A stretch of 64,000 nucleotides of DNA from an uncultured Candidatus Saccharibacteria bacterium (GTDB taxonomy: Bacteria; Patescibacteriota; Minisyncoccia; Phycocordibacterales; UBA2100), in the NCBI GenBank assembly GCA_964586255.1, contig CAZPGE010000003.1:2537-66536 (forward strand), written 5' to 3'. Both the position numbers and the translations under genes were made by a program. Positions 6,060 through 56,829 of this stretch are shown piece by piece. Each line of letters begins with the position of its first letter. Within the stretch, counting starts at the first letter, position 1. Below the pieces are notes generated by a model. That model saw nothing but the letters and a program-made list of their open reading frames with translations. It was not told where the DNA came from and searched no databases.

Positions 6060-6811
6060 TTACACGGGCTACATGTTTCCTCTTGTTGCTGACGCCAATG
6101 AGCGCGCATGCATATTTCCAGGGTTATTATGAAGCCGCCTACTACTCGCAAGCAACCTACTATTCTCAGGCTACTTACTACTCGCAAGCAACCTACTATT
6201 CTCAGGCTACTTACTACTCGCAAGCAACCTACTATTCTCAGGCTACTTACTACTCGCAAGCCAGCTATCAGACGACGTTCACAAGAAATGCGTCTATCGT
6301 AGGAGGCCTCAGTGTGGCGGGGCACATCTCAAAGGGCTCAGGTACATTTGTCATCGATCACCCGCTCGACCCTTTCAATAAACTCCTCTTCCATTCGTTC
6401 CTCGAGTCGCCCGACGCAAAGAATCTCTACGACGGCATAGCGAAGCTCGACAAGGACGGCAGCGCGCGAGTCACGTTGCCGAAATACTTCGAAGCGCTTA
6501 ATACGGATTTTCGCTATCAGTTGAAGCCCGTTGGTGCGCCGATGCCACTACTTCATGTCCTGAGCGAGGTGTCGGACAATAGTTTCGCAATTGGCGGAGG
6601 CGTCGCTGGTGGAAAAGTCTCCTGGCAAGTCACGGGTACGCGCAAAGACCAGTACATTCTCGACAATCCCATAATTCCCGAAGTCGAGAAGGGTCCGGAG
6701 CAATTGGTTGAGAAAGGCCAGTATCTTTTTGCGGCGGGGTACGACAACGGCGGCATCCGATCAATTTTCTCCGGAATAGTAGACCTTTTGAACTCCCTGA
6801 TCGCCCGCTGA
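6050..6811 (+). CDS. Secreted protein with the same conserved domain plus an inserted (YYSQAT)n tandem repeat (paralogue 3 of 3)
   Basis: Signal-peptide-like N-terminus (LLLLTPMSAHA). Contains ISKGSGTFVIDHPLDPFNKLLFHSFLESPDAKNLYDG...KVSWQVTGTRKDQYILDNPIIPEVEKGP. Overlaps the previous gene by 10 nt. Confidence 0.65.
   Translation: MRIITRATCFLLLLTPMSAHAYFQGYYEAAYYSQATYYSQATYYSQATYYSQATYYSQATYYSQATYYSQASYQTTFTRNASIVGGLSVAGHISKGSGTFVIDHPLDPFNKLLFHSFLESPDAKNLYDGIAKLDKDGSARVTLPKYFEALNTDFRYQLKPVGAPMPLLHVLSEVSDNSFAIGGGVAGGKVSWQVTGTRKDQYILDNPIIPEVEKGPEQLVEKGQYLFAAGYDNGGIRSIFSGIVDLLNSLIAR
6131..6266 (+). repeat. In-frame tandem repeat, 36-nt unit x ~3.5 (encodes the YYSQAT hexapeptide about 7 times)
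   Basis: Unit 'tactcgcaagcaacctactattctcaggctacttac' repeats perfectly. It lies inside CDS 6050..6811. Confidence 0.85.
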
Positions 6812-6836
6812 AGTGTATTCCTATACAATACCAGTC

Positions 6837-8036
6837 ATGGGAAAGTTTGCCGTGAAATATACGATAATCCCCTTCTTCATTGCGCTTGTGTTCGGAGTCG
6901 GCTATTTCATCTTCGGTGCTAAGCCGTACGCTGAAGCATCCTCCATCGCCCGCGGCGTGGAGGACTTCAAGGAACTATCTCAGCGCTTCGTCGCTCTTTC
7001 AGAAAAGAAGAGTGCAGAGTATGCGTTTGAGATACTCCGACGCGCGGAGTTACCCCCGAATACGGATTTGCATCTGTTGGGGCACGTCGTGGGAGATGAA
7101 TTGTACAAACAGCAGGGGATAGACGGTATCGTCTTATGTACGCAGGATTTCCGCAACGCATGTTCGCATTCCATAGTCATAGGAGCACTCAATGAATTTG
7201 GCGGAGAACCCGCCCTTGCACGCATCCGCGACGCGTGCCGAAGAGCGCCAGGAGGTTCCGGTGCATATACCATGTGTTACCACGGGTTGGGCCATGGCAT
7301 TCTCGCCTTTTATGGGTACGATCTGGAGCCTACAATTGCGCTTTGCAAACAAGCCGGCACTTTGGAATATCGTGAGCGCGAATATATAGAGTGTGTGGGG
7401 GGAGCCGTAATGGAGCTCATGGGCGGTGGTGGTCATGACAGAAAGTTGTGGCTCGCGAGTAGGTCACGATACTTGAGTGGGGATACGCCTCTTGCGCCAT
7501 GCACGAGCGACGTCATTCCAAGTGAAATAAAACCGCTGTGCCTTGTCTACCTCACGCCACGACTCTGGGAATTGGCCGGCATCGACTTAGGACGTCCGGA
7601 CCCGTCACTTTTCTCGAAGGCATTTGCGATGTGCGACACGCTCTCTCGCTCACGGCAAGAATTACGTGCCGCATGTTTCGGAGGCTTCGGAAAAGAATTC
7701 ATTCCACTCGCAGGTGCGCGAGACATTCGAGGCGTGGACCGGTTTTCTGATGATGCGTATGCTCAAGCGATTGAGTGGTGTGGGTATGCACCTGCAGAAG
7801 ATGGTCGCACGGCATGTATTTCAGAGGCTTTGGCATCGATCTTCTGGGGCGGAGAGAATGACCCAGAGGCGAGTTTCCGGTTTTGCGCTCTTGTTTCTGA
7901 GTCTGGAATGCAAAGCGCATGCTACGGAAGCCTCGCGCGTAATATTCAGGACTACACGGAAGGTTCCGTGCGAAACGCGCTGTGCGCACGTATACCAGAA
8001 AAGGAGCGTATAGAGTGCACAATCTCAGGTATATGA
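6837..8036 (+). CDS. N-terminally anchored Cys/His-rich repeat protein (family member 1 of 5)
   Basis: The ORF-track start at 6813 is GTG; the ATG at 6837 precedes a TM helix (IIPFFIALVFGVGYFIFG). Recurrent C...C...GYxHGxGHG motifs (MCYHGLGHGILAFYGYD). About 20 Cys, mostly in pairs. Confidence 0.7.
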   Translation: MGKFAVKYTIIPFFIALVFGVGYFIFGAKPYAEASSIARGVEDFKELSQRFVALSEKKSAEYAFEILRRAELPPNTDLHLLGHVVGDELYKQQGIDGIVLCTQDFRNACSHSIVIGALNEFGGEPALARIRDACRRAPGGSGAYTMCYHGLGHGILAFYGYDLEPTIALCKQAGTLEYREREYIECVGGAVMELMGGGGHDRKLWLASRSRYLSGDTPLAPCTSDVIPSEIKPLCLVYLTPRLWELAGIDLGRPDPSLFSKAFAMCDTLSRSRQELRAACFGGFGKEFIPLAGARDIRGVDRFSDDAYAQAIEWCGYAPAEDGRTACISEALASIFWGGENDPEASFRFCALVSESGMQSACYGSLARNIQDYTEGSVRNALCARIPEKERIECTISGI

Positions 8037-9088
8037 CACGACGTACCCTTATAGCGATTGCACTCTGCGTTGTATTTGGGGCTGGTGGCATCGCAGTACG
8101 CCAGTATGCGACCGAGACCCAGAGCTCGTTGGCGAACAGGCAGCCGACTGAGAGCGAGAGAATATGGACGGAAAAAATACGTGCGCTTGGTGGCAAAGCG
8201 GCATACGCTTCGCTTGCAAAAGAGATAGAGGGTATGGCGCCGGAGGTTCAGCACACGAGCGCGCATGCATTTGGCGCAGCCCTCTTTGCTGTCGAAGATA
8301 ATGCTGGACTATCTGTGTGCGACGCGCGCTTCTCGTATGGGTGCTTCCACGAGTTCATGGGTAATTCGATCGCGTCGCACGGGCTCTCTGTCGTCAACGA
8401 ACTCAACGAGGGGTGTATCCGGGTACTAGTCAAAAGCCCGCTCTCTTGCCAGCACGGCATAGGACATGGAATATTAGCCTCTCTCGGATACGACGAGGAG
8501 TCCCTCATTACGTCACTCGGGGAATGCGCCAAACTTCCATACAGTGACCGTATAGGGGGATGCTATGGCGGTGTGTTCATGGAATACAATATGCAAACGA
8601 TGCTCGGTAAACAAGGGCACTTACGGTCGGCAGATTCCGAGGAGGGTTTGTACAAGCCGTGTGTCGGCTTGGAATCGAAGTACCATGCCTCGTGTGTATT
8701 TTGGCAGCCGCAATGGTGGCACATTGCAGTGCTGCATGCTGAAAGCAGCGAAGAATCGTTTGCGCAGCTTGGTACCTACTGCAGAGGAATGACACATACG
8801 AAAGAGTTACGTCGCGAGTGCTTCCAGGGTATTGGCAATATTACGAATCCGGCCACCGATTTCGATGTAGTGCGCTCGCGAGAACTATGCGATGCCACTT
8901 CTTCAGACCACCTTGAACGACTCTACTGTAGGGCGTATGCCGCCAACTCCCTCTTAAATGGGGGCGGAGGAAAAATCGGTGATGGGGATGCGTTGTGCGA
9001 CGGCTTACCCGAAAGTGAGCGAGAGTTCTGTCTTGCGTATGCGCGCAATGAGGCAAATTCAGCGAATGTGTTGGAATCTCCTCTATGA
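8033..9088 (+). CDS. N-terminally anchored Cys/His-rich repeat protein (family member 2)
   Basis: Start ATG overlaps the upstream stop (ATGA). TM helix (LIAIALCVVFGAGGIAV). Motifs include SCQHGIGHGILASLGYDEE and CDARFSYGCFHEF. Confidence 0.7.
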   Translation: MTRRTLIAIALCVVFGAGGIAVRQYATETQSSLANRQPTESERIWTEKIRALGGKAAYASLAKEIEGMAPEVQHTSAHAFGAALFAVEDNAGLSVCDARFSYGCFHEFMGNSIASHGLSVVNELNEGCIRVLVKSPLSCQHGIGHGILASLGYDEESLITSLGECAKLPYSDRIGGCYGGVFMEYNMQTMLGKQGHLRSADSEEGLYKPCVGLESKYHASCVFWQPQWWHIAVLHAESSEESFAQLGTYCRGMTHTKELRRECFQGIGNITNPATDFDVVRSRELCDATSSDHLERLYCRAYAANSLLNGGGGKIGDGDALCDGLPESEREFCLAYARNEANSANVLESPL

Positions 9089-10248
9089 AGCCAGTCTTCA
9101 CGGTGAGCGGCTTTCTCATAATCGCCGCATGTGCTTTTGCGCTTATATTTTTTGCTGATGTTCGCTCTGCGCATAGTGAAGCCCAGCGCATCGTGGAGAT
9201 TTGCTCAGGAGAATCAGCACATGCCGAGTGTTACGAACGGGAGGTTCCGAGATTGCTTCCCGACTATTCACTCACGCAGGCCTTCGACGTCATACGTCAG
9301 ATTCGGTTAATCGACCCTGCGTACCAATTTTGTCACGTGCTTGCGCATAAACTCGGAGAGAGAGTCGTCGCTGAAGACCCCGACAAATGGATAGATGCCA
9401 TCCCGCTCAATCCGACGGATGGCCTGTGTTCAAATGGATATATTCACGGGGTGTTGGGTGGCCGATTTCGAGCAGAGGTTCTTGAACCGGCGGCTCTCAG
9501 AAAACTCATACCAGACTTCACGAGAGCATGCGCGTCGAGGAAAGAGTGGCGCTCCAGCGAACTGGACCGCGCCATATGCAGCCACGGCATGGGGCATCTC
9601 TATATGTTTATCACCGATGCGGACATTCCGCTTTCCCTTTCGCTTTGTGAAGACACGATGCCTGAGCAGCTGAGGCGCGTATGCCGCGAGGGTGTATACA
9701 TGCAAATTTATCAGCCGCTCGAACCGGATGACTATCTACTCATTGAGCGCATGCCCATAAAGCCGACGAAAGAAACACTCCGTTCCTTCTGTGCACGATA
9801 CACGAAAGATGAGTATGAGGGCGCATGTCTGCGAGAGGGCTGGCCATTTTTCCGAGAAGAGCTAAAGACTGGCGAAGGCATAACGAAATTTTGCTCAGGC
9901 CAGCCAAATGACCGAGAAGAGATAGCGTGCTTCGAATCCACGCTCGCACTCTCGGGCAGATTCAATCTAGGGAATCAGGCCAAGGCGCTCTCGCTGTGCA
10001 ACGAGGTTGCGGATAAATGGAAGGCGATGTGTTATTCGAGTGCGGCACGCGCGATACTTGAAGAGGACAGGGCAGAAGGGAAAAAGGCTGTCGCATTTTG
10101 TAAGAGCGCGGCAAACGATCAGCAAGACGAGTGTCTCGGGCAGCTTGCAGACACTGCCAGCTTCGTTTTCGGCAACTCCTCCGAACAGAAAAGGTTTTGT
10201 TCTCTCCTCCCAGTCCAGCTTAAGGAGCGTTGCCTGGGACAGCCATAG
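9085..10248 (+). CDS. N-terminally anchored Cys/His-rich repeat protein (family member 3)
   Basis: ATGA overlap with the upstream gene. TM helix (FLIIAACAFALIFFA). Motifs include QFCHVLAHKLGE, CSNGYIHGVLGG and ICSHGMGHLYMF. Confidence 0.7.
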   Translation: MKPVFTVSGFLIIAACAFALIFFADVRSAHSEAQRIVEICSGESAHAECYEREVPRLLPDYSLTQAFDVIRQIRLIDPAYQFCHVLAHKLGERVVAEDPDKWIDAIPLNPTDGLCSNGYIHGVLGGRFRAEVLEPAALRKLIPDFTRACASRKEWRSSELDRAICSHGMGHLYMFITDADIPLSLSLCEDTMPEQLRRVCREGVYMQIYQPLEPDDYLLIERMPIKPTKETLRSFCARYTKDEYEGACLREGWPFFREELKTGEGITKFCSGQPNDREEIACFESTLALSGRFNLGNQAKALSLCNEVADKWKAMCYSSAARAILEEDRAEGKKAVAFCKSAANDQQDECLGQLADTASFVFGNSSEQKRFCSLLPVQLKERCLGQP

Positions 10249-19991: not shown

Positions 19992-21344
19992 ATGCTCATG
20001 CAATCTCGAAATATCGGCTTCGGAGTGGGCGTGACCGTACTCACGTGCGTACTCGCAGCGTATGCGGTAGTTTCGAGTCTTTCTCCGAAAGTCTTTACGA
20101 TTACGCTCACCGAGTCAGGATTTGTGCCCTCAAGATTGCTCATAGATAAGGGAGATACCGTCGTCTTTATATCTGAGGTCGAGGACGCATTCTGGCCGGC
20201 ATCGGACTCGCATCCCACCCACGGTCGCTATCCTGAATTTGACCCAGGTCGCGCGCTCGTTCCGGGAGAGTCATGGGAATTCACGTTTGAGAAAGCCGGT
20301 GTGTGGACATTCCATGATCACCTGAGGACGGGTCTGAGAGGCAAGATATTGGTCATGGGCGCAAAAGGTGAAAGCAGCAGGAATTGTCTAAAGGTACAAA
20401 CCGGGACCATACAGCCTGAGTGCTGGGAAGCCGAAGTTGTATCTGTCGTGCGCACAAGAGGTACGGAAGCGGCATTCGACTCGATACGAACATGGTATGA
20501 AGAGAGCAGTGACTTCCGGAGAAATTGTCATGATGTTATGCATATTGTGGGCGTTGCGGCATATGCCGAATATGCCGGGAAAGGACTCGTTACGATACGA
20601 GACGAGACGTCGTATTGCGGGCATGGCTTTTATCACGGATTTGTTGAAAAGATGCTTTTGGAACGCGGGGCAGGCCAGTACGCGGAGGCCGATGCGTATT
20701 GCACGGATCTCAAGGTCATGAAGCCCGAGGCGGCCGGATCGTGTTATCACGGTATCGGTCACGCGGTATTCGATTCAATCGATGGTTCTTTGTGGGGTAA
20801 TGACGTCGGCATGGTCGACTTCGCGCTTGGCGTATGCCAAGCGGCACTGTCAGGCGAGTGGGAGCGCGTGCGTTGTGGTTCCGGCATCTTTAATGCGCTG
20901 GCGAATGCGTATAGTGCAAGAACCTATGACCTCACGTATCTCGATAATAAGCCGCCCTCTCTTTGCGACAATGTGCCGAAAGCGTATCAAGACTTTTGCA
21001 ATATGGAACTTGGCAATGGATATATCCGAGATAAACATTGGGGGCAGGCACAGGAAATCGATTTCATTCGACGTATCGAAAATCAGGAAGTTCGCGCTGC
21101 GATCATCGTGGGATATATGGACACTGAGGTCAAACGTTCTATAGATGCTGTTGACGTAGGGGCATTCGCGAAGTTGTGCCGCTCCTTCTCAATAGAGCAA
21201 GATATTCATGCGTGCGTTGTAGGAGTTCATTCGGGTTTGCGGGGGATCGGCGAGCCCGAAAACGAGGATGGGCTCGTGGAATCGTTTTGCAGGCTTTTGG
21301 ATGGTCCATACCGCATGACGTGTACCGAGAGTACTCGCCCATAG
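19992..21344 (+). CDS. Anchored fusion protein: cupredoxin-like domain plus Cys/His-rich repeat domain (family member 4)
   Basis: TM helix, then a cupredoxin-fold signature (GDTVVFISEVEDAFWPASDSHPTHGRYPEFDP...WEFTFEKAGVWTFHDHLRTGLRGKILV), then YCGHGFYHGF and SCYHGIGHAVFD motifs. Confidence 0.7.
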   Translation: MLMQSRNIGFGVGVTVLTCVLAAYAVVSSLSPKVFTITLTESGFVPSRLLIDKGDTVVFISEVEDAFWPASDSHPTHGRYPEFDPGRALVPGESWEFTFEKAGVWTFHDHLRTGLRGKILVMGAKGESSRNCLKVQTGTIQPECWEAEVVSVVRTRGTEAAFDSIRTWYEESSDFRRNCHDVMHIVGVAAYAEYAGKGLVTIRDETSYCGHGFYHGFVEKMLLERGAGQYAEADAYCTDLKVMKPEAAGSCYHGIGHAVFDSIDGSLWGNDVGMVDFALGVCQAALSGEWERVRCGSGIFNALANAYSARTYDLTYLDNKPPSLCDNVPKAYQDFCNMELGNGYIRDKHWGQAQEIDFIRRIENQEVRAAIIVGYMDTEVKRSIDAVDVGAFAKLCRSFSIEQDIHACVVGVHSGLRGIGEPENEDGLVESFCRLLDGPYRMTCTESTRP

Positions 21345-21364
21345 TGTGCAATAATGGCCTCGAT

Positions 21365-21751
21365 ATGCGCGCGGTATTCAGTATCTTGATAGTGCTTGCA
21401 GTCGTCGCGCTCGTAGGTGCCCTCGTGTATACGAGCACCCCATCCAAAGTAAAGATAGTCGACTTTCAGGGACAAGAAAGAGTCGATATCGTGCTGAAAG
21501 AAGACGGTTTCGAACCGCGCGATATCCGCGTGACTCGGGGCACCGTGGTGACCTTTACTACAACGCGTCCAAACAAATTCTGGCCGGCTTCCAACGCGCA
21601 TCCATCGCATGATGTGTACCCGCAGTTTGACCCGCAGAAGGTGCTGAGCCCAGAGGAATCATGGTCGTTCACATTTGACGTGGTGGGTGTGTGGGGTTAC
21701 CACGATCACGTGCGTTCGTATTTTACCGGGGTCATATATGTGGATGAATAA
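21365..21751 (+). CDS. Small anchored cupredoxin-like protein (stand-alone paralogue of the N-terminal domain of 19992..21344)
   Basis: Starts at Met 64 of ORF 21176..21751 (MRAVFSILIVLAVVALVGALVY). Contains RGTVVTFTTTRPNKFWPASNAHPSHDVYPQFDP...WSFTFDVVGVWGYHDHVRSYFTGVIYV. Confidence 0.65.
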   Translation: MRAVFSILIVLAVVALVGALVYTSTPSKVKIVDFQGQERVDIVLKEDGFEPRDIRVTRGTVVTFTTTRPNKFWPASNAHPSHDVYPQFDPQKVLSPEESWSFTFDVVGVWGYHDHVRSYFTGVIYVDE

Positions 21752-22946
21752 AAAGATATTGGTACGCGTGGGGGCAGGTGCGGTGCTCTGTATTGCGCTG
21801 GCCGCTCTGCTTTTTTCATACAGAGACAATTCGAAATCGACGCTCGCGCCATGCCGCAAGGAAACAGTCGATACACAGCAAATAGAATGCATTTTCCGCT
21901 CGATTGAGCGTGAGATTCTTGACGACGGGATGTCAGCGGGTATGGTGCTTTTCTCGCGTGCATACGCTGACTTCCCTTCATTCGTAGCTCAAGGATGTCA
22001 CAAGCAAGCTCACAGAGTCGGAGATATCGTGTATGCGCGTCTTTACACGTCCGAAGGGGGAATGGACGCACTCGATTTTCCGCAAGAGACAACCGCGTGC
22101 GGATACGGATTTTTCCACGGGTTTCTCGAACACTTGATACAAGACAGACCCGACCCCAAGTTTGTCGACTCGATATGTACAAACTTGAGCACGCGTCTCA
22201 GTGGGACGATGGGTTCCATAAAGAGCATATGTTTTCATGGGAGCGGACATGGATTTGCGCTCGCTCATGCAGAGACATTGCCCCGCTCTGCGTGGGGAAA
22301 TGTGCGGGAATTCACGGTGGATGCTGCCGCGATGTGTGACAAGCTTACTGAGGCCGATGAACGTTCGGTTGAGGAATGTAAGGAGGGCGTGTTCAATGTG
22401 TTGGTAGAGTGGATGTCCCTGAAGCAGTACGGCTTTTCCTACGATCAGGCGCGGCCATTTGTTCCATGCGACGCGGGGCCGAGAAGCTTACAGAGTGCGT
22501 GTTACTACGAGATGGCGCAGAAATTGGATGGACTCGCGGAGCGCGACCCTGTCAAGCTTGCACGTATTGTCGCCGATATTCCCGATGAACGATTGAGACT
22601 CATGTCATTCAAAGTCGGTATTGCGGGCATCGTCCAAAATACGATACAAGACAAAGGTGCTTCGGAGAGGATACTTTCTGCATGTGCCACATTGGATAGG
22701 CGATTTCTCAATCTGTGCCTGGAGAATTTCGTACATGGATTATTTGAACATGGTGCACCGCAGGAAGAATATATCCGTGCACTCGGCATGTGCAGGCTCG
22801 ACGCTGTTGTTGAGAATGATCTTGCATCGAAATGCTATGTTGCTGTCATGGAGCGTTTGCCCCGCTTCTACTCTCAAGACCAGCAGAGAAGTATTTGCAC
22901 TGAGTTTCCGCCAGAATTCCGCTCGGATTGCACGCGAAGCTTATAA
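21744..22946 (+). CDS. N-terminally anchored Cys/His-rich repeat protein (family member 5)
   Basis: Start ATGAATAA overlaps the upstream stop (alternative ATG at 21738). TM helix (GAGAVLCIALAALLF). Motifs include ACGYGFFHGFLEHL and CFHGSGHGFALAH. Confidence 0.7.
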   Translation: MNKKILVRVGAGAVLCIALAALLFSYRDNSKSTLAPCRKETVDTQQIECIFRSIEREILDDGMSAGMVLFSRAYADFPSFVAQGCHKQAHRVGDIVYARLYTSEGGMDALDFPQETTACGYGFFHGFLEHLIQDRPDPKFVDSICTNLSTRLSGTMGSIKSICFHGSGHGFALAHAETLPRSAWGNVREFTVDAAAMCDKLTEADERSVEECKEGVFNVLVEWMSLKQYGFSYDQARPFVPCDAGPRSLQSACYYEMAQKLDGLAERDPVKLARIVADIPDERLRLMSFKVGIAGIVQNTIQDKGASERILSACATLDRRFLNLCLENFVHGLFEHGAPQEEYIRALGMCRLDAVVENDLASKCYVAVMERLPRFYSQDQQRSICTEFPPEFRSDCTRSL

Positions 22947-28742: not shown

Positions 28743-29180
28743 ATGAAGACCAATTCAACTAAGCGAGGCTTCACACTCATCGAACTACTCGTGGTGATAG
28801 CGATTATTGGCATGCTTTCCTCAGTCGTCCTTTCATCTTTGAACAGCGCGAGGAAAAAGGCGCGTGACGCTCGACGTCTTGCCGATTTCAAACAGCTCCA
28901 GACTGCGCTCGAGCTGTACTATTCCGACAACACGGCATATCCAGCGTCGGTTACCCAAGCGAATATTTCGACGGCGCTCTCAGGTCTTGCGCCGGCGTAC
29001 ATGGCAGCGATACCGGAAGACCCGCTCGGCGGCAGCTATCATTATGTGTACAAGACAACGTCAGGTGGCACATTCTATTGTCTCGGGACTGCATATGAAG
29101 GCACAGCTCCTGCCTCGACGTGCAACACTACGAGCCTTGGGAGCTCTCTCACTGGGGTAGGGTATTCTGTCGGTCCGTAA
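28743..29180 (+). CDS. Type IV pilin / pseudopilin with a prepilin N-terminal cleavage-methylation domain
   Basis: MKTNSTKRGFTLIELLVVIAIIGMLSSVV is the class III signal: G|FTLIE plus a hydrophobic helix. Confidence 0.85.
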   Translation: MKTNSTKRGFTLIELLVVIAIIGMLSSVVLSSLNSARKKARDARRLADFKQLQTALELYYSDNTAYPASVTQANISTALSGLAPAYMAAIPEDPLGGSYHYVYKTTSGGTFYCLGTAYEGTAPASTCNTTSLGSSLTGVGYSVGP

Positions 29181-48743: not shown

Positions 48744-48780
48744 ATGACGGAGTTCGTAACTCCGTCATATTGTTTTAGTA
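48744..48780 (+). terminator. Hairpin plus T-run after gyrB (the region also holds a second hairpin at 48711-48728 on the convergent gene's side)
   Basis: atgacggagt-tcgta-actccgtcat followed by attgtttta. Confidence 0.45.
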
Positions 48781-49749
48781 GATTGGGTACTGATACGGAG
48801 CGTTGTAGTTGTACGGATAGCTTCCGCTTATGTACTGAGAGTCGGTGTTGTTGACCTCATTGCTCTCAGCTGCAGTATTCGATGGGTCGACAATCACATA
48901 TACCTGACCAGGGATTGCTTGCGTGAATCGCAGCGTGTTGACGATGTACGAGCCAGGAGCGAGCGAAGACTGTAGCGGTGACATGTAGGTGTATGGCTGC
49001 GCTGTCGGAATCTGTGCAGTGAAGTAGTAGCTGCCGCTGTTTCCCGTGCCGATGTTGGAGATGTTAAACGTCACTGTACCGTTGCCGTACTGGTCTATCG
49101 AGACCGATGTGATGGTGACGGCGAGATCACCGAGGCCATACGCGGCAGGTTTCGCAGGTGTCGGTGTTGGCGTCGCGGGCGTGATTGGTTTCTTTGGCTC
49201 CGTGACGACAGGAGTCGTCGGCGTACTCGGCGCGGGGGTGCCGGAAGATGCGAGGACCGTCATCGTGACCGAACCTTCTGCTGGGGTGGACGATGTAGCG
49301 CTTGGGATGAAGAGCACAGAGAGGGGAGTCTTTACCGATGAGGTGCCGGTGAGCATCGGGAGGATGGTCGCGCTCGTCGTCGCTGTGCCGAGCGTATATG
49401 CGGTGCCGCACGGGATAGTCGTAAATGTCTGCACAGCCGAAGGTGTCGAGAAACGGAGTCCCTCAGTGCATGGATAGATAAGTGCGTATGAGCCAGCTTC
49501 ACTCGTCTTATGTTTCCACGAAATACGCGCGCTCTGACCGGAGTTTACAGAAGCGGGAGCGGTGACAGATATCGATGTGTCGCCCTTTCCGTCAAAGAGT
49601 GAAGAGAAAAAGCCGCCTGAAATCGAGAGGAGATGTATAAGACCCCAAATAATTATCACCACAAGGATAATCGAACCTATGATGGCGAGGATATTCGCAA
49701 GCATCATCGTGCCGGCGCCCTTTTGGTTTGTGTCTGACATGGCCGGCAT
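48775..49749 (-). CDS. N-terminally anchored, Thr/Pro-rich surface protein with a C-terminal CARDB-like domain
   Basis: TM helix (LANILAIIGSIILVVIIIWGLI), a TP-rich linker (PAPSTPTTPVVTEPKKPITPATPTPTP), then a C-terminal region (VIVDPSNTAAESNEVNNT) that resembles the CARDB motif. Start chosen at MPAMSD. Confidence 0.55.
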   Translation of the reverse strand: MPAMSDTNQKGAGTMMLANILAIIGSIILVVIIIWGLIHLLSISGGFFSSLFDGKGDTSISVTAPASVNSGQSARISWKHKTSEAGSYALIYPCTEGLRFSTPSAVQTFTTIPCGTAYTLGTATTSATILPMLTGTSSVKTPLSVLFIPSATSSTPAEGSVTMTVLASSGTPAPSTPTTPVVTEPKKPITPATPTPTPAKPAAYGLGDLAVTITSVSIDQYGNGTVTFNISNIGTGNSGSYYFTAQIPTAQPYTYMSPLQSSLAPGSYIVNTLRFTQAIPGQVYVIVDPSNTAAESNEVNNTDSQYISGSYPYNYNAPYQYPIY

Positions 49750-49815
49750 CTTTACATGAATATATGCGTTTGTCAAGTGCTCTGGGAGGGGCCTATTGAC
49801 AAAGAGGCACATAAG

Positions 49816-50520
49816 ATGTATGATTCACCTATGAATCCTACCCACGGCACAACAAAGCCACAAAAAACCGCTCCCAAGAGCGTCTTTCTTGCTGCGACGC
49901 TCGTGGTCTTCTTTCTCTCGCTCTCAGCGGCAGATTCTGTCGGCTTTGTTCCCGATTACATCGATGGGACGAATACAGAGTACGAGACCGTCGCAGAGAC
50001 ACTCTCTGAAGAGACGGTAGCTCTCTCGAGTCTTCCTGAGCTTGGTCCAAGTACGCCTGTTGTCGAAGAAATCGCCGTAAAGCCGGAGCGCCTCATCATC
50101 TCTGCTATCGACCTCGACCTCTCCATACAGAATCCAGGGACGCGCGACATCGGCGAGCTCGATGCGCTTCTTAAAAATGGTCCTGCGAGGTACGTCGACT
50201 CTGCGATGCTCGGCGAGAACGGCGGCAACATGATTATCTTCGCACATTCGTCGAATCTTCCTGTAGTGCGCAATCAGATGTACAAAGCGTTCAACAAAGT
50301 ACCGACACTGGTCGCGGGGGATACCATCACCATCCAGGCTGATGGAAAGAGTTACTTGTACATGGTCACGTCGGTAAAAAAGGCAGATGCGTCGGACACT
50401 CGAATCGACATGTCGCGCACGCTTGGTACGCGTCTCACCCTCGTGACGTGCGATACCCTCACTTCAAAAGATGCACGCTTTGTGCTGGAGGCCTCATTTG
50501 TTGGCTCGTACGACATATAA
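49816..50520 (+). CDS. Sortase-family transpeptidase
   Basis: N-terminal TM anchor. Candidate catalytic His (NMIIFAHSS), Cys (TRLTLVTCDT) and a downstream Arg (KDARFVLEA). Confidence 0.65.
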   Translation: MYDSPMNPTHGTTKPQKTAPKSVFLAATLVVFFLSLSAADSVGFVPDYIDGTNTEYETVAETLSEETVALSSLPELGPSTPVVEEIAVKPERLIISAIDLDLSIQNPGTRDIGELDALLKNGPARYVDSAMLGENGGNMIIFAHSSNLPVVRNQMYKAFNKVPTLVAGDTITIQADGKSYLYMVTSVKKADASDTRIDMSRTLGTRLTLVTCDTLTSKDARFVLEASFVGSYDI

Positions 50521-50524
50521 ATCT

Positions 50525-51100
50525 ATGAACACCATGAAAACACTCATCATCCCTCTCGCGTGTGCCGCCATCCTCCTTGGTGCAAACACGGCATCTGCCG
50601 CATCCAACTGCGGATGCGATGAAATCGTAGTTTCGCGCAGCACGATAGTCGCACAGCCTGTCACCATTGCGGGTCCCGTCACTGTAGGACGACCGGCTAC
50701 AGTCGGCCGTCCAGCGACAGTCGGTCGCCCCGTAAACGTAGGGCGCCCTGTGAGTGTGGGCTATCCCGTCATAATCGGCCGACCCATCAGTCTTGGGTAT
50801 CCGGTTGAAATCGGCTACGCGGTAGACGTCGCACACGCTGTCGAAATCGCGCATGCGGTAGACATCGCACGCGCCGTCGATATCGGTAAGGTGGTCGACA
50901 TTGCGCACGCAGTCACGATTGGTTCTGTTGCAAACATCGGCTCCGTCGTCTCGATTGGTCATGCTGTGGAAATCGCGCGTGCGGTAGATGTAGGACGCCC
51001 CGTCGAGATTGCACATGCGATAGATATTCATCGCCAGACGAAGCCCGACAATTCCGTCGAATCAAATCTCGAGCAGATGCGTCGCATCTTAGCGAATTAG
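50525..51100 (+). CDS. Secreted protein built almost entirely of ~20 hexapeptide repeats ([VIL]-[GA]-x-[PA]-V-x; left-handed-beta-helix-like periodicity)
   Basis: Signal peptide (LIIPLACAAILLGANTASA), then VGRPATVGRPATVGRPVNVGRPVSVGYPVIIGRPISLGYPVEIGYAVDVAHAVEIAHAVDIARAVDIGKVVDIAHAVTIGSVANIG... Starts 5 nt after the sortase stop. Confidence 0.55.
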   Translation: MNTMKTLIIPLACAAILLGANTASAASNCGCDEIVVSRSTIVAQPVTIAGPVTVGRPATVGRPATVGRPVNVGRPVSVGYPVIIGRPISLGYPVEIGYAVDVAHAVEIAHAVDIARAVDIGKVVDIAHAVTIGSVANIGSVVSIGHAVEIARAVDVGRPVEIAHAIDIHRQTKPDNSVESNLEQMRRILAN

Positions 51101-51179: not shown

Positions 51180-51617
51180 ATGCCCATCCATCATACGAAA
51201 ATGCCTGCGAGCATTTGGGTCGTTTTCTACATCGGCGTGCTCGCAAGCATCGTCTACTCCGCCGCAATCTTCTTCCTCACGATTTTCCCGCACTGGTTCG
51301 GTGCAACAAGTCGTGGCCATATCACAGAGTGGTGGGGAATTGCGGGCGGCGTATTCATCTGCCTGCAGATCATCCCGGTCGTCTCGAGGCCCGTGCACAA
51401 GGATGCGTGGGAGATTGCGGACCACCTCACGTCCTGGATCCCTATTGTGATCTTGCTCGGTGCATTTCCGGCGATCTGGTTTACAAGGGGCATCATGCCC
51501 GATCGTTGGACCTGGCAGGTCTACGGAACTGGCCTTGCGCTGAGTATCGCGGACGTGCTTCTGACGTTCGTGTCGCTGAAGATTTCGCGCTTTGCTCAGC
51601 GGATTACCTCGGCGTAG
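51180..51617 (+). CDS. Small 4-TM membrane protein
   Basis: 145 aa with four hydrophobic helices. Confidence 0.5.
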   Translation: MPIHHTKMPASIWVVFYIGVLASIVYSAAIFFLTIFPHWFGATSRGHITEWWGIAGGVFICLQIIPVVSRPVHKDAWEIADHLTSWIPIVILLGAFPAIWFTRGIMPDRWTWQVYGTGLALSIADVLLTFVSLKISRFAQRITSA

Positions 51618-51646: not shown

Positions 51647-51702
51647 AATTGAGCGGGGCTGCAAGGCCCCGCTCTTGACTTTTTGATATATTAGTGTACA
51701 AT
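51647..51702 (+). promoter_or_regulatory. Terminator-promoter module A: GC-rich hairpin fused to TTGACT (-35), 16-nt spacer, TACAAT (-10)
   Basis: Hairpin gagcggggc-tggcaag-gccccgctc, then cTTGACTtttt...gtgTACAATt. The next gene begins about 38 nt downstream with a GGGAGA Shine-Dalgarno. Confidence 0.55.
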
Positions 51703-52245: not shown

Positions 52246-52305
52246 GGGGCGCGTCGGGATTCACTCCCGCCGCGCCCTTGACTTTTGTATACTATTTGCT
52301 ATAAT
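52246..52305 (+). promoter_or_regulatory. Terminator-promoter module B: GC-rich hairpin fused to TTGACT, 16-nt spacer, extended -10 TGcTATAAT
   Basis: ggggcgcg...cgcgccc hairpin, then cTTGACTtttgtatactattTGcTATAATaaaa. Confidence 0.6.
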
Positions 52306-52356
52306 AAAAACCGAATAAAACTATCGGTTTTGGCCCTAACATTGAGAGGAAATGCC

Positions 52357-52656
52357 ATGTCAGCTGGCGGTCATGATACCCACGGAAGTGGTGCGCTCGG
52401 GAAAGTTGCTGGCTGGGTGGCAGTTGCCACCTTCGCCGTCATTGTCGTCAACGGAGCCTTCAACAGGCTCGATGGCAAGAACTTCTTCGACGGGATCTTC
52501 AGCGGAGGTTCGCGCTCGCCGACAAGCTTCCAGGGTGTGAACAATCCGGGACGGCGTGTCGGCTATGTCGCCGGCGCTCCGACAACTGCACGGGAATGTG
52601 CCGCGCGTGGGGGCTCTGTCGTCAACGGCGGCATGTCCTGCAGCGGCTACCAATAG
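52357..52656 (+). CDS. Small N-terminally anchored protein with the conserved C-terminal two-Cys domain (family member P1)
   Basis: The start follows the promoter and a GAGAGGA Shine-Dalgarno. TM helix (VAGWVAVATFAVIVV). C-terminus RVGYVAGAPTTARECAARGGSVVNGGMSCSGYQ. Confidence 0.55.
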   Translation: MSAGGHDTHGSGALGKVAGWVAVATFAVIVVNGAFNRLDGKNFFDGIFSGGSRSPTSFQGVNNPGRRVGYVAGAPTTARECAARGGSVVNGGMSCSGYQ

Positions 52657-52668
52657 AGAGGAGATGTC

Positions 52669-52953
52669 ATGTCGAACGATACGCCGAAACATGAGTCCGG
52701 CTTCGAAAAGGGTATGGGCATTGGCTTCGGAATAGTGTGGGCCATTGCGCTCGTTGTTGCCGGCACCTTGCTCTTGATCATGATCTTCGAGCGATTCGGT
52801 CCGCCGAGCGCTTCGTACCGATCTCGTCAGGCTGCGGTCATCGGCACTCCCGGCAGCGGTTACGTCGCAGGAGCGCCCGTCAATGCGACGGAATGCATCG
52901 CGCGCGCTGGCCATGTCGTCTACGGCGGCAAGGGATGTCGTGACTACCGGTAA
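52669..52953 (+). CDS. Small N-terminally anchored protein with the conserved C-terminal two-Cys domain (P2)
   Basis: GAGGAG Shine-Dalgarno. TM helix (GIGFGIVWAIALVVAGTLLLIMIF). C-terminus GSGYVAGAPVNATECIARAGHVVYGGKGCRDYR. Confidence 0.55.
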   Translation: MSNDTPKHESGFEKGMGIGFGIVWAIALVVAGTLLLIMIFERFGPPSASYRSRQAAVIGTPGSGYVAGAPVNATECIARAGHVVYGGKGCRDYR

Positions 52954-52971
52954 CCATGGTCTTTACAACAA

Positions 52972-53020
52972 GGGAAGCGGCCTCGCCTCAGGCTTGGCCG
53001 CTCCCCGCTACTTTCTGAAA
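52972..53020 (+). terminator. GC-rich hairpin after P2 (a near-duplicate of the hairpin after P3)
   Basis: gggaagcggcc-tcgcctcaggctt-ggccgctcccc. Confidence 0.4.
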
Positions 53021-53104
53021 ATCCGATACGGTTTGATACATCGAACTGTGCCGGACTTTCACGAAAGGCGTGAGAGCACGAGTTCTTTGAAGGAGAGAAT
53101 ACAG

Positions 53105-53515
53105 ATGACCAAGATTGTCAGGTTGTTCTTCGGGTTGGCGATGCTCGCTATCTCGCAGATGGCTATGTCGAATGAGGCATCGGCTCAGCGCCGATGCGGC
53201 GATTTTATCCAGAACGGCACCATCTACGTCGCGAGTCGCGCGAGGGATTGTGACCGCGGCACTTCCTGGCAAAGGGATCGGCGCGGAAACCGCATCTGGG
53301 GCATGTCGCGTGCTTCATCGCATCGGGCCTACTATCACGGTCGTCATGCCGCGGCTCGACAGTACGGGCGTACGCGTTCGTACGCGTATCGTCCTGCAGC
53401 GGTTGCGGCGGTCACGACCAATTACATCCCCGGTGCGCCGCGAAATGTCGCGGAGTGCTATGCTCGCGGTGGCACGCTCGCCAACGGCGGACGCGGATGT
53501 GCCGGTTATCGCTGA
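53105..53515 (+). CDS. Secreted protein with the conserved C-terminal two-Cys domain (P3)
   Basis: AAGGAGAG Shine-Dalgarno. Signal peptide (LFFGLAMLAISQMAMSNEASA). C-terminus TNYIPGAPRNVAECYARGGTLANGGRGCAGYR. Confidence 0.55.
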   Translation: MTKIVRLFFGLAMLAISQMAMSNEASAQRRCGDFIQNGTIYVASRARDCDRGTSWQRDRRGNRIWGMSRASSHRAYYHGRHAAARQYGRTRSYAYRPAAVAAVTTNYIPGAPRNVAECYARGGTLANGGRGCAGYR

Positions 53516-53525
53516 AGTTCTTCCC

Positions 53526-53570
53526 GGAAGCGGCCTCGCCTGAGGCCTGGCCGCTTCCCAAGATTTTTCT
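53526..53570 (+). terminator. Intrinsic terminator after P3
   Basis: Perfect 10-bp stem ggaagcggcc / ggccgcttcc, then caagatttttctccc. Confidence 0.6.
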
Positions 53571-53709
53571 CCCACACTTGCGAATATCATTTCAGAGGTA
53601 TATGCCTCTGGATAGTCTTCGGAAGAAGATATTATGTTGAGCCGCTCGGACCGAAAGGGAAGAGCATCCTGTTCTACGACAATGCCCATGATGGGCGATG
53701 GAGAAGACC

Positions 53710-54369
53710 ATGAAGATGAGAATCGGTTTGGCAGCGCTTGCGCTGCTCGCGTTCATCCCCGCGGCGAATGCCAACGGGGCTGACAATAAGGCCTGCGAAC
53801 CCGACTGCTACAAGACGGTCACGAAGTCGAAGATCGTCGGATACAAGTGGGCGCGCGTGCCCGTTCGCAAGAAGTACGAGGTCAAGGAAAAGGTCACTTG
53901 CAAGGACGACTGCTCGCCTGTGAAGGTGAACGCCGGTCCCGGTGTCGACATTCCCTCGCCACCACCCGCGGTCGTCATTCAGAACCAGAAGGTCCTGGTG
54001 ATCACCCGCCCGGTCGTCGAATATGCCCCGGTTCCGCCGGTCCGCATTCTCCCGGCACCGGAGGTGGTCTACGACCAGCCGACCCTCGTACGCGCTCCGC
54101 CTCCGCCGATGGTGCAGGTGGTTCGCGCTCCGACGCAGTGCCGGCCGATCGTGCGTGCGACCTGCAATGGTTGCCAGCCCGTGCGGACCGCGTGCGTGCC
54201 TCCGGGTCATCATGGTCCGGCGAACGCTCATGGTGCCCCGCAGCAGACTGCAGCGGTCGGCTCGCCCGGCGGCGGTTATATCGCCGGCGCACCGACGAAT
54301 GCGCAGGAGTGCATCGCGCGCGGTGGCCAGCTCGCCAACGAAGGCCGCGGTTGCGCCGGCTACCGCTGA
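53710..54369 (+). CDS. Secreted Cys/Pro-rich protein with the conserved C-terminal two-Cys domain (P4)
   Basis: Signal peptide (MKMRIGLAALALLAFIPAANANG). Pro-rich middle region with 8 further Cys. C-terminus GGGYIAGAPTNAQECIARGGQLANEGRGCAGYR. Confidence 0.55.
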   Translation: MKMRIGLAALALLAFIPAANANGADNKACEPDCYKTVTKSKIVGYKWARVPVRKKYEVKEKVTCKDDCSPVKVNAGPGVDIPSPPPAVVIQNQKVLVITRPVVEYAPVPPVRILPAPEVVYDQPTLVRAPPPPMVQVVRAPTQCRPIVRATCNGCQPVRTACVPPGHHGPANAHGAPQQTAAVGSPGGGYIAGAPTNAQECIARGGQLANEGRGCAGYR

Positions 54370-55398: not shown

Positions 55399-56829
55399 AT
55401 GAACATCAATAAAATAGTCGCAGTTGGTCTCTGCGCAGTAGTGTTCGGCATCATGCCGACCGTCGCGAACGCACAGTACGATTTCTCAGATTCGTATGTC
55501 GATTACGGTGGTTTTTCGGATTACTCAGGCGGCTACGACTTCTCGGACTCGTACGTCGACTACGGTGGTTTTAGTGACTACACCGGCACTGGCGGCTACG
55601 ACTTCTCGGACTCATACGTCGACTACAGTGGCTTTGGTGACTACACCGGCACTGGTGGCTACGACTTCTCGGATTCGTATGTCAACTATGACGGATTCAA
55701 CAACTACTCAGATTTCCCGAACACGTACTCGGATTTCCCAACGGATTGCGGTGGCGTATCCTGCACGTACTCGGATTTCCCGACCACGTACTCGGACTTC
55801 CCGACGTACAGCGATTTCCCAACGACGTACTCGGACTTCCCGACGTACAGCGACTTCCCATCAGACTGCGGCTCAAGCTGTGGCCAGGTGACGTACAACG
55901 AGTCGTGCGGCTGCTACGAGACTCGCGGCGGTAGCTACGGCGGCGGATTCGGTGGTGGCTTTGGCGGCGGCTTCAAGATGCCTTCCTTCGGTGGCATGTC
56001 GATTGTTCCTCCGAGCTATCCGACTCCTCCTCGTCCTACCCCGACCCCGCACTACCCTCAGCCGACTCCTCCTCGTCCTACCCCGACGACTCCGTCGACT
56101 CCAATCAACATCAACAACGTGAACACGAACACGAATACCAACACCAACGTGAACACGAATGTGACGACCGTCACGCCAGTAACCCCGGGCCCCGTCGTGC
56201 AGTATGTCTACCCGTACTCTCCGCAGTATCCGACATACCCGACCCAGGCACCGTTCTGTGTCATCACAGCAAGCAATCAGTACAACTATGGCAACGGCAT
56301 GATAACGCTCACGTGGAGCTCAAGTGGAGCCACGAGTGCCTACATCACACCGGGCCTCGGTCAGGTCGCTCCCAACGGTTCGACGACGCTCTATGGGTAC
56401 AACAACACTGTGTACACCATGACAGTCTCCGGACAGGGTGGTTCGTACACGTGCCACACACAGTCGTACGTCAATCCGATAACTCCGGTGAGCCCGTACG
56501 TATCGCTTACGCAGATACCGTACACAGGTCTTGCACTTGGTCCTATCGGCAACGCGCTCTACTGGATGGGTCTCATCTCAGTAGCGGTAGCCGGTGCGTA
56601 CCTCTTGGTCTACTACAGGGGCGGCATGCTTGCCCTCGCAGGCCAGACTCTCTCAGCTTCGATTGCACGTCGTTCGCAGGAAGAGGATGTATCTCCGGTG
56701 GCAGCTCCTCATCAGGAAAAGGTAGCGGCTCTCGCTCACCTTCCGGTACAGGAAACGACGACTCGTGACGCGATGAAGATTGTCCGCTCGGAAGACGGAA
56801 CTCCTCGCCTCGTCATCTCTCGCGCCTAA
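55399..56829 (+). CDS. Large low-complexity secreted protein with a C-terminal IPYTG motif, hydrophobic helix and charged tail (candidate sortase substrate or surface-layer protein)
   Basis: Signal peptide. Repeats (YDFSDSYVDYGGFSDYTGTGG x4; TYSDFPT x7; GGGFGGGFGGGF; PTPPRPTPT; NTNTNTNVNTN). Then SLTQIPYTGLALGPIGNALYWMGLISVAVAGAYLLVYYRGG. Confidence 0.6.
   Translation: MNINKIVAVGLCAVVFGIMPTVANAQYDFSDSYVDYGGFSDYSGGYDFSDSYVDYGGFSDYTGTGGYDFSDSYVDYSGFGDYTGTGGYDFSDSYVNYDGFNNYSDFPNTYSDFPTDCGGVSCTYSDFPTTYSDFPTYSDFPTTYSDFPTYSDFPSDCGSSCGQVTYNESCGCYETRGGSYGGGFGGGFGGGFKMPSFGGMSIVPPSYPTPPRPTPTPHYPQPTPPRPTPTTPSTPININNVNTNTNTNTNVNTNVTTVTPVTPGPVVQYVYPYSPQYPTYPTQAPFCVITASNQYNYGNGMITLTWSSSGATSAYITPGLGQVAPNGSTTLYGYNNTVYTMTVSGQGGSYTCHTQSYVNPITPVSPYVSLTQIPYTGLALGPIGNALYWMGLISVAVAGAYLLVYYRGGMLALAGQTLSASIARRSQEEDVSPVAAPHQEKVAALAHLPVQETTTRDAMKIVRSEDGTPRLVISRA
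55477..55870 (+). repeat. Coding tandem-repeat region (63-nt and 21-nt units) inside 55399..56829
   Basis: Repeated tacgacttctcggactcgtacgtcgactacggtggttt... and gtactcggacttcccgac... units. Confidence 0.7.

Follow-up and report, generated by a model that had tools for sequence, protein, structure and literature searches.

A sortase gene of a patescibacterial genome is followed by a fast-diverging gene for an exported hexapeptide-repeat protein

We analysed a stretch of 64,000 nucleotides (nt), hereafter the window, from the genome of an uncultured bacterium of the Patescibacteriota (contig CAZPGE010000003.1), and describe here two adjacent genes on its forward strand. The first (49816..50520) encodes a membrane-anchored sortase. 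The second (50525..51100) encodes a protein of 191 residues, ~166 of them in the mature form, which is built largely of consecutive six-residue repeats (hexads) behind a predicted signal peptide. This arrangement had been described in an earlier note on the same DNA, and it was confirmed by the open reading frame (ORF) coordinates, by Pfam and by periodicity statistics. The TAA stop codon of the sortase gene occupies 50518-50520 and the next ATG starts at 50525, so that a gap of 4 nt (ATCT, 50521..50524, forward strand) separates the two genes. The close adjacency given in the note therefore stands, whereas its figure of five nucleotides has to be corrected to four.

The N-terminus of the repeat protein reads MNTMKTLIIPLACAAILLGANTASA|AS, the bar marking the predicted cleavage site (ASA|AS). 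As read from the sequence, residues 1-25 (50525..50599) form a signal peptide, predicted to be of the typical Sec kind, with a basic n-region including K5, the 13-residue hydrophobic core LIIPLACAAILLG and A-S-A at positions -3 to -1, that is, Ala at -3 and -1. Residues 8-20 are helical in the AlphaFold2 (AF2) model. A CxC motif (CGC, residues 29-31, 50609..50617) lies four residues past the predicted mature N-terminus, and CxC, or one or two Cys, is found near the mature N-terminus of many positional orthologues, not of all. A lipoprotein reading was rejected on inspection of the residues: there is no lipobox, and A-S-N precede the first Cys.

The repeats themselves occupy residues 46-171 (50660..51037) as 21 unbroken hexads of the pattern V-x-[IV]-[GA]-x-[PA], a consensus that may also be written [VI]-x-[VI]-[GA]-x-[PA]. 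Two further degenerate hexads lie upstream of the 21, beginning at residue 34 (nt 50624). The identity between residues six positions apart (lag 6) is 0.50, compared with 0.104 +/- 0.027 in 10,000 shuffles (z = 14.7). The earlier note had counted about 20 consecutive repeats, which these values bear out, and the hexads that it listed (VGRPAT twice, VGRPVN, VGRPVS, VGYPVI, IGRPIS, LGYPVE, IGYAVD, VAHAVE, IAHAVD, IARAVD and so on) matched the translation exactly. The segment after the hexads is HRQTKPDNSVESNLEQMRRILAN. It contains the amphipathic helix SVESNLEQMRRILA (51053..51094), which is preceded by a conserved HRxxKPDN and was predicted as a helix in both AF2 runs with a predicted local distance difference test score (pLDDT) of ~60-78. 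With P-numbers denoting protein search matches and L-numbers genome loci compared, this helix is kept in P0001, P0011, P0020, P0151, L010, L011 and L012 and is absent from P0002, P0013, P0040, L013 and L015.

The mature protein has a grand average of hydropathy (GRAVY) of +0.37 and a Val plus Ile content of ~30%. In this hydrophobicity it is unlike a disordered segment. The window protein contains no Trp, no Phe and no transmembrane (TM) segment after the signal peptide. Six His are present in the mature part, four of which align on one face if three hexads make up one coil. The description of a small secreted protein without a catalytic extension was thus upheld: the signal peptide is present, and no catalytic extension was found. 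The ice-binding properties that the note had put forward for examination found no support, and an ice-binding role was rejected because the repeat protein lacks a regular Thr/Ser array on one face.

The gene was compared with its orthologue in L010, Parcubacteria bacterium Athens0416_74, whose GyrB is 98% identical to that of the window. The L010 repeat protein is 91% identical to the window protein, with K121 replaced by Arg. Most of the nucleotide differences between the two genes (70 of 88) fall at codon position 3. The ratio of nonsynonymous to synonymous substitution rates (dN/dS) is 0.069, there are no indels, and the number of repeats is identical. By the same comparison, dN/dS is 0.038 for the sortase, 0.050 for the divergently encoded CARDB-domain protein described below and 0.013 for GyrB. 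The repeat-protein gene is therefore real and under purifying selection. An ORF on the opposite strand (50459..51031) was considered as the true gene and was ruled out by the codon-position pattern of the substitutions. That both the residues and the length are constrained in this way would be expected of a folded protein more than of a free linker. At the DNA level, a tandem array is detectable only as a short 18/36-nt stretch (50807-50910), which indicates that the protein repeats are old and diverged, and do not result from a recent expansion or an assembly artefact. In a comparison of the window with L011, identity is 62% for the repeat protein, 74% for the sortase and 90% for GyrB; the repeat protein is changing more rapidly than the proteins encoded next to it.

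The sortase carries an N-terminal TM segment and matches the Pfam Sortase family (PF04203) with 62.6 bits against a cut-off of 26.6, over model positions 3-123 of 125. The residues of the catalytic triad, H144 (in FAHSS), C212 (in LVTCD) and R221 (in ARF), are invariant in 8 orthologues, and in a profile alignment they stand opposite GH, TC and KRY of Bacillus anthracis SrtA (2kw8). None of the NCBIfam models for sortase classes C, D, E, F and GN reached its cut-off, the best being class E with 33.4 bits against 160. The protein is a divergent sortase of the housekeeping type. A consensus scan found a promoter-like site, TTGACA-17-TATGAT, at 49796..49824 on the forward strand (11 of 12 matches). 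Its position suggests that ATG 49831, and not 49816, may be the start codon of the sortase, on a leaderless mRNA, and the starts of the orthologous sortases are equivalent to Met 49831. Sortases are encoded in more than half of the genomes of the Candidate Phyla Radiation (CPR) (PMC6744442).

Directly past the TM helix, the extracellular linker of the sortase (~49990..50050) contains the motif SAADS[IV]GFVP[DY]YIDG. A second motif, ALS.LP[EQ]LG[DE], lies downstream of the first and resembles an LPXTG pseudo-substrate in which Leu replaces Thr. Both are near-universal in the orthologues (L003-L086) and could be an autoinhibitory or docking element. No residue of the sortase was found that distinguishes loci with the repeat partner from those without it.

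Co-transcription with the sortase, as the earlier note had it, is in line with the arrangement of the genes: the gap is only 4 nt, it contains no terminator-like site, none was found in the window between the sortase and 51651, and the adjacency recurs in 8 of 8 close homologues. The repeat protein is probably made from the same transcript as the sortase, with translational coupling. A strong terminator-like hairpin is located at 51651-51674. It lies 3' of a gene for a polytopic membrane protein of 145 residues (51180..51617, forward strand). This gene may be the third of the transcription unit; it is kept in L010 (95% amino acid identity) and not in more distant loci.

On the reverse strand upstream of the sortase (48775..49749) lies the gene for an N-anchored, Thr/Pro-rich protein of 324 residues, counted from the ATG at 49749. 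It has an N-terminal TM segment, and its residues 208-303 match CARDB (PF07705) with 37.4 bits against a cut-off of 22.7, in agreement with the earlier assignment as a divergent CARDB-domain protein. Orthologues occupy the same divergent position in L003, L007, L008, L009, L010-L013 and L015, which makes the CARDB protein a conserved part of the module. Internally, about halfway along the protein, there is a conserved [IV]LP..[TA]GT[SE] (LPMLTG in the window; orthologues in L003, L007, L008 and L009). Compared with LPXTG this motif has one residue more, and no TM segment comes after it; in all likelihood it is no more than a conserved strand. In the clade whose repeat partner is of the SYPTGS type described below, the place of the CARDB protein is taken by a large protein (655-904 residues) with long GGGGDS repeats, encoded upstream of the sortase on the same strand (L019 3944..5911, L028 3429..5882, L039 3195..5909 and L078 3500..5869). 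The protein of L039 gave sub-threshold PKD and borderline BiPBP_C matches.

Relatives of the repeat protein are rare in the databases. Word-indexed searches over 5.8 billion proteins returned 2, 7 and 5 proteins, the small numbers being due to repeat-sharing sequences that swamp the candidate lists. When 1.84 billion representatives were searched exhaustively, 196 proteins matched; most of them are unrelated proteins with repeats, and six are true family members. Among the 5.8 billion proteins there are only 8 close homologues. All 8 are encoded directly 3' of an orthologous sortase, at a spacing from an 11-nt overlap to +40 nt, and the divergent CARDB protein accompanies them wherever the contig extends far enough. 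The family members share a signal peptide, often the CxC, an acidic Tyr-rich segment and then the strand motif E-E-v-v-I-T-d-t-q-I. Their hexads are of the form V-[AG]-H-[PA]-V-x, and some of the proteins end in an L-x-Q-[LM]-[RK]-R-x-L helix. The family alignment contains no conserved stretch of 7-10 columns. The family has no model of its own in Pfam or NCBIfam, where it gave just sub-threshold matches to left-handed beta-helix (LbH) regions.

The GTDB species representatives were scanned with the alignment of the sortase, not with that of the repeat protein. The scan gave 77 loci, each from a genome that bears the label Kaiserbacteria, Paceibacterota, Parcubacteria or the like. The window sequence itself belongs to a bacterium of the Candidatus Kaiserbacteria type within the Parcubacteria/Paceibacterota (CPR). 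A signal-peptide protein with period 6 (156-339 residues) follows the sortase immediately in 37 of the ~72 assessable loci, mostly at a spacing of -14 to +18 nt, and few other period-6 ORFs occur in the flanks apart from this gene and its alternative-frame shadows. The expectation of the earlier note that the gene would be present at orthologous sortase loci was thus borne out at about half of them and not at the other half. These counts show that the repeat gene is accessory to the sortase and not obligatory.

The repeats of these proteins fall into four types: type A, [VI][GA][HRY][PA]Vx, which includes the window protein and also IGYAVN variants; type B, SVPTSY or SVTVAx; type C, SYPTGS, with a Tyr-rich C-terminal domain; and type D, PGYPSN. 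The flavour (VAHPVx, SVPTSY, SYPTGS or PGYPSN) differs from clade to clade. Transitional proteins, for example that of L037, align the types in a single hexad frame, [small]-[V/I/Y]-x-[V/I/T]-[G/A/S]-x. In a neighbour-joining tree of the sortases, the repeat type tracks the sortase clades, which points to co-inheritance of the pair. The gene is missing from the deepest sortase branches, and its other absences are scattered through the tree; the scattered absences are consistent with repeated loss. Judged from these comparisons, the family appears to be unannotated, restricted to Kaiserbacteria and fast-diverging, with almost no relatives in the databases.

The relation of the repeat protein to the sortase was analysed further on the basis of sorting signals. 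The earlier note had seen no obvious LPXTG-like motif in the window protein; in agreement with this, no such motif followed by a TM segment was found in it or in any of the 38 positional orthologues. Because it has no sorting signal, the repeat protein is not a classical sortase substrate. A pilin-like Lys acceptor was rejected as a general mechanism, since Lys is missing from the mature part of 7 of the 38 orthologues and L010 has Arg in place of K121.

Candidate substrates are encoded elsewhere in the neighbourhood. In the window, a secreted Tyr-rich repeat protein of 476 residues (55399..56829, forward strand) carries YVSLTQIPYTG (nt 56515-56529), a TM segment and a 70-residue tail. In about two dozen related loci, a protein with QIPYTG and a TM segment is encoded at a distance of 0.1-5 kb downstream from the sortase; the pattern scan flagged 26 loci, four of them through chance matches without PYTG. 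The conserved signal in these Tyr-rich repeat surface proteins is YVSL[ST]QIPYTG[FL]D.GP.GNA.YW, after which come a TM helix and, in many cases, a tail of 60-120 residues; some of the QIPYTG proteins carry short basic tails. Counts of the core motif were 23 for IPYTG, 2 for VPYTG, 2 for APYTG and 1 for LPYTG. In L085, a QIPYTG-type gene lies directly 3' of the sortase, and further examples are L003 11362..12543, L006 6391..7743 and those of ~20 other loci. These separate proteins are likely to be the substrates of the sortase, and QIPYTG is probably what Kaiserbacteria use as their form of the LPXTG sorting signal. The signal is absent from the models of Pfam and NCBIfam, and the motif was not found in this context in the literature searched.

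The earlier note had also compared the hexads with those of LbH hexapeptide proteins. At the level of the motif this comparison holds. The pattern [LIV]-[GAED]-x2-[STAV]-x fits 18 of the 20 hexad frames, the other two having Ile at the fifth position, and 17 of the 18 PDB sequences that match the family profile at E <= 1 are LbH proteins. The top match is QdtC (E = 6.4e-5), followed by LpxA, gamma-class carbonic anhydrase (gamma-CA), GlmU, maltose O-acetyltransferase and LpxD. Similarly, the sub-threshold NCBIfam matches are to the LbH parts of LpxD and LpxA. A single-sequence AF2 run (pLDDT 46.8, predicted template modelling score 0.36) placed a three-residue strand on the V-x-[IV] of nearly every hexad, and a terminal helix. 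The non-significant matches of a Foldseek search are mostly beta-solenoids, among them LpxD, DapD, dynactin p27, gamma-CA, autotransporters and an ice-binding protein. A C-terminal helix after the repeats, as predicted here, is also present in LbH proteins of the gamma-CA type.

A considerable number of results weigh on the other side, against a beta-solenoid made as a partner of the sortase. The AF2 run with an alignment of eight sequences gave a pLDDT of 42.7 and no strands in the repeats, so that pLDDT was low in both runs (42.7 and 46.8). Foldseek gave no significant match, the best having E = 0.6 and a TM-score of ~0.2. Pfam Hexapep (PF00132) was not reported for the repeat protein even at E <= 1, and two models stayed below their cut-offs, LbH_EIF2B with 24.3 bits (cut-off 54) and NCBIfam LpxD with 33 (cut-off 207). 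An hhalign comparison of the family with an LpxD gave a probability of 16%. A super-period of 18 residues was sought and not found, identity falling monotonically from lag 6 through 12 and 18 to 24. Nine hexads carry Pro at the fourth motif position, which is unusual in canonical LbH proteins. The polar repeats of some orthologues (SYPTGS, SVPTSY, PGYPSN) put Thr or Tyr at core sites and would make a poor LbH core. In addition, about half of the orthologous sortase loci have no repeat gene, and the sortase therefore does not need it. The solenoid, for which the earlier note had proposed structure prediction as a check, was not confidently predicted; the low-confidence models that it had named as contrary evidence are what we obtained. 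The match to LbH hexapeptides thus stands for the motif and not for the fold. Nevertheless, because of the hydrophobic composition and the strong purifying selection without any change in length, we favour a beta-solenoid, possibly of the LbH subtype and perhaps dependent on oligomerisation, over a disordered spacer.

Taken together, the coupling of the two genes as in an operon, their co-inheritance and the hypervariable surface of the repeats suggest a non-enzymatic envelope element which is made with the sortase and in which change of the exposed residues is either tolerated or driven. We tentatively propose, at somewhat less than even confidence, that the repeat protein is a fast-evolving envelope protein of the beta-solenoid type, produced together with the sortase and not serving as its canonical substrate. 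According to this proposal, a Sec-exported protein of ~166 residues would carry a CxC handle at its N-terminus, then 21-23 hexads without a break and, at the C-terminus, an amphipathic helix. The hexads would probably fold into a beta-solenoid rod, perhaps only upon oligomerisation. Each hexad would contribute a three-residue strand (V-x-I, with the side chains inward) and a three-residue turn (G/A-x-P/A), giving an LbH-like rod of ~7 coils if there are three hexads per coil. The exposed positions (Arg, Tyr or His at i+2 and Thr, Ser, Asp or Glu at i+5) would be free to vary between lineages. The rod would be located at the outer face of the membrane or the wall, beside the N-anchored sortase and the CARDB protein, and would act as a structural or adhesive surface element and not as an acyltransferase. 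In this proposal, how the protein folds, where it resides once exported and its action as a structural or adhesive element are inferred.

There are other possible interpretations of these results. The repeat region could be an extended or disordered spacer, flexible or of the polyproline II type and possibly glycosylated, which forms a wall-spanning or mucin-like filament and in which period and composition are what is selected. Such a spacer would be modelled on the Pro-rich hexapeptides of the Mycoplasma cytadhesin P30 or on the wall-spanning regions of Gram-positive proteins. It would account for a pLDDT below 50 throughout the repeat region in both AF2 runs, for the missing 18-residue super-period, for the extreme turnover of sequence between clades and for positional orthologues whose hexads are rich in Ser, Thr, Pro, Tyr and Gly (SYPTGS, SVPTSY, PGYPSN), one of which, the PGYPSN-type protein of L049, gave a sub-threshold match to Pfam Cytadhesin_P30 (27.8 bits against 40). 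However, the abundance of beta-branched hydrophobic residues in the window protein (Val plus Ile ~30%, GRAVY +0.37) is atypical for disordered linkers, selection against L010 is strongly purifying without indels (dN/dS 0.069), regular strands do form in the single-sequence AF2 model, and the protein has neither a C-terminal nor a clearly uncleaved N-terminal anchor, which spanning of the wall would require. We therefore consider a spacer unlikely, though it deserves serious attention. A conserved catalytic role is unlikely as well. A secreted LbH enzyme, either a trimer resembling gamma-CA with a ladder of His or an extracellular acyltransferase, could be imagined from the LbH-type motif, from the six mature His (four on one face with three hexads per coil) and from weak matches to gamma-CA (NCBIfam E = 0.0037; PDB 7tgh E = 0.025), and Methanosarcina Cam is an exported LbH enzyme. 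The family scores are, however, far under the cut-offs (gamma-CA 16.9 bits against 250; LpxD 33 against 207), catalytic extension and loop insertions are absent, and the positional orthologues in L018, L037, L049, L053, L074 and L077 have no His, which argues against a conserved metal site. To our knowledge, acyl-CoA and acyl-ACP donors are unavailable outside the cell. For these reasons an enzyme is highly improbable.

Two further interpretations, in line with the partner or scaffold that the earlier note had considered possible, assign the protein a direct part in the work of the sortase. In one of them, the repeat protein, singly or as a polymer joined by its CxC, would be an acceptor or scaffold whose mature N-terminal amine receives the QIPYT- acyl intermediates, so that surface proteins are displayed on a protein rod that replaces or adds to peptidoglycan. 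The translational-type coupling, which suggests matched expression, would suit this role, as would the co-inheritance of the pair, the QIPYTG proteins in the same neighbourhood and the lack of an anchor in the repeat protein itself. It has to be set against these points that no conserved N-terminal residue or motif follows the predicted cleavage site, that a pilin-like Lys is excluded generally (7 of 38 mature parts without Lys; K121 Arg in L010) and that half of the orthologous sortases function without the repeat protein. We regard an acceptor of this kind as rather improbable. The same low expectation applies to a more elaborate version, in which the protein is an extracellular sortase partner forming a solenoid rod or fibre, perhaps linked by CxC disulfides, that serves as acceptor or scaffold for the QIPYTG proteins and whose hypervariable residues tune host attachment. 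Alternatively, the protein might regulate or stabilise the sortase in the manner of SafA. A conserved non-substrate partner gene beside a housekeeping sortase has a precedent (PMC9282373), the coupling of the genes is tight, and the exposed, juxtamembrane SAADS[IV]GFVP[DY]YIDG and the LP[EQ]LG pseudo-motif of the sortase could be docking sites. The surface of the partner is nonetheless hypervariable while the sortase is conserved, which is hard to square with a specific binding interface. The sortase motifs are the same in loci with and without the partner, and the window protein, without Trp, Phe or a TM segment after the signal, resembles SafA neither in sequence nor in architecture. A role as stabiliser is accordingly still less probable than one as acceptor.

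The proposed solenoid-type envelope protein can be compared with several known systems. With LbH proteins (Hexapep PF00132 and LbH_EIF2B in Pfam; LpxA, LpxD, GlmU, QdtC and gamma-CA) it shares the tandem [LIV]-[GAED]-x2-[STAV]-x hexads. It differs from them in being exported, in having no catalytic or N-terminal domain and in lying below every curated threshold, as well as in the Pro at the fourth motif position of 9 hexads, in the polar flavours of its orthologues and in a fold that AF2 does not confirm. SafA is the conserved partner gene of an actinobacterial housekeeping sortase and encodes a small TM protein with an FPW motif, which binds the sortase SrtA and shields it from cleavage by signal peptidase (PMC9282373). 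The likeness consists in a non-substrate gene conserved beside a housekeeping-type sortase, which implies a functional partnership; in contrast, the window protein is a secreted repeat protein of 166 residues with no TM segment, no FPW and no similarity to SafA. Another comparison is offered by the chaplins and class E sortases of Streptomyces. Chaplins are small, secreted, hydrophobic, beta-rich proteins, and the long chaplins with LAXTG are true sortase substrates. The window protein is likewise a small secreted hydrophobic protein tied to a sortase, and the best sub-threshold class of that sortase is E. Unlike the chaplins, it has no sorting signal or chaplin domain, and its gene lies within the sortase operon. 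The Mycoplasma cytadhesins P30/P32 (PF07271) resemble it in that a surface or attachment protein of a bacterium with a reduced wall or of ultra-small size has repeats of period 6 outside the cell. The hexads of the window protein are, however, rich in Val and Ile and not in Pro, Gly and Met, and P30 belongs to the membrane proteins of the attachment organelle and has no link to a sortase.

Related tracts appear to occur outside the CPR as well. P0007, P0010 and P0015 have a signal peptide, a long [VI]G[RK][PS]Vx tract and then a C-terminal domain of toxin type; these domains are a barnase-type RNase, a nuclease like that of EC869 in contact-dependent inhibition (CDI) systems and an alpha/beta-hydrolase. 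L087 is a further case of such a tract ahead of a toxin-type domain. The identity of these toxin-like proteins to the window protein, which consists of repeats only, reaches 54% over the GRP hexads. P0010 is encoded on a 2-kb contig without informative neighbours, and no sortase lies near the gene of P0035, a small protein consisting of repeats only. The toxin-like proteins show that hexapeptide tracts of this kind occur more widely in exported proteins, which speaks for the proposed envelope protein. Outside the CPR, secreted effectors thus seem to share [VI]G[RK][PS]Vx as a hexapeptide module that has no annotation.

Several other regions of the window, all on the forward strand, also encode secreted or membrane proteins. 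At 52285..54369, small secreted or membrane proteins are encoded in a row (ORFs 52285..52656, 52669..52953, 52883..53515 and 53698..54369). The four have in common a C-terminal Cys motif of ~30 residues, Y[VI][AP]GAP.N..EC.ARGG...NGG.GC.GYR, and look like a paralogous family; the two members tested gave no Pfam or NCBIfam hits. A signal-peptide protein at 6050..6811 has many copies of a period-6 ATYYSQ repeat (lag-6 identity 0.70) and no Pfam match, and short Tyr-rich tandem repeats seem to be general among the secreted proteins of this genome. The adjacent ORFs 98..1501 and 1503..4874 (467 and 1123 residues) have a common C-terminal KW.NLR.DQDGD..G.HVI. In 6813..10248 and 19992..22946, there are several N-anchored proteins of ~370-450 residues with a C-terminal Cys-x(9-12)-Cys (FCSLLPVQLKERC, SFCRLLDGPYRMTC, SICTEFPPEFRSDC), which may form a paralogous family. 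The ORF 28743..29180 has the N-terminus MKTNSTKRGFTLIELLVVIAIIGMLSS, which we take to be the N-terminal processing motif of a type IV pilin or pseudopilin.

Literature on sortases in Parcubacteria, Kaiserbacteria, Patescibacteria and the CPR and on IPYTG was searched, and neither this gene pair nor the motif is described there. The sortase-linked pair is thus previously undescribed in the searched literature, although solenoid surface proteins and sortase accessory genes are known as kinds. The envelope and host-attachment machinery of the CPR/Patescibacteria is largely unknown, and the substrates and partners of their sortases are uncharacterised. For this question the locus provides a candidate lineage-specific sorting signal, YVSL[ST]QIPYTG with a TM segment, and a conserved non-substrate gene in the sortase operon in which the period of six is kept and the sequence is replaced between clades. 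If the repeat protein proves to be only a spacer, it would still be a useful marker of a fast-evolving surface module of Kaiserbacteria. If it is a solenoid rod or a scaffold for the sortase, it would be a sortase-associated surface structure of a new kind and would show the hexapeptide-repeat motif put to non-catalytic use in an exported protein. Should the protein be a rod that accepts sortase substrates, it would provide an episymbiotic CPR bacterium with a protein-based, rapidly evolving anchoring platform.

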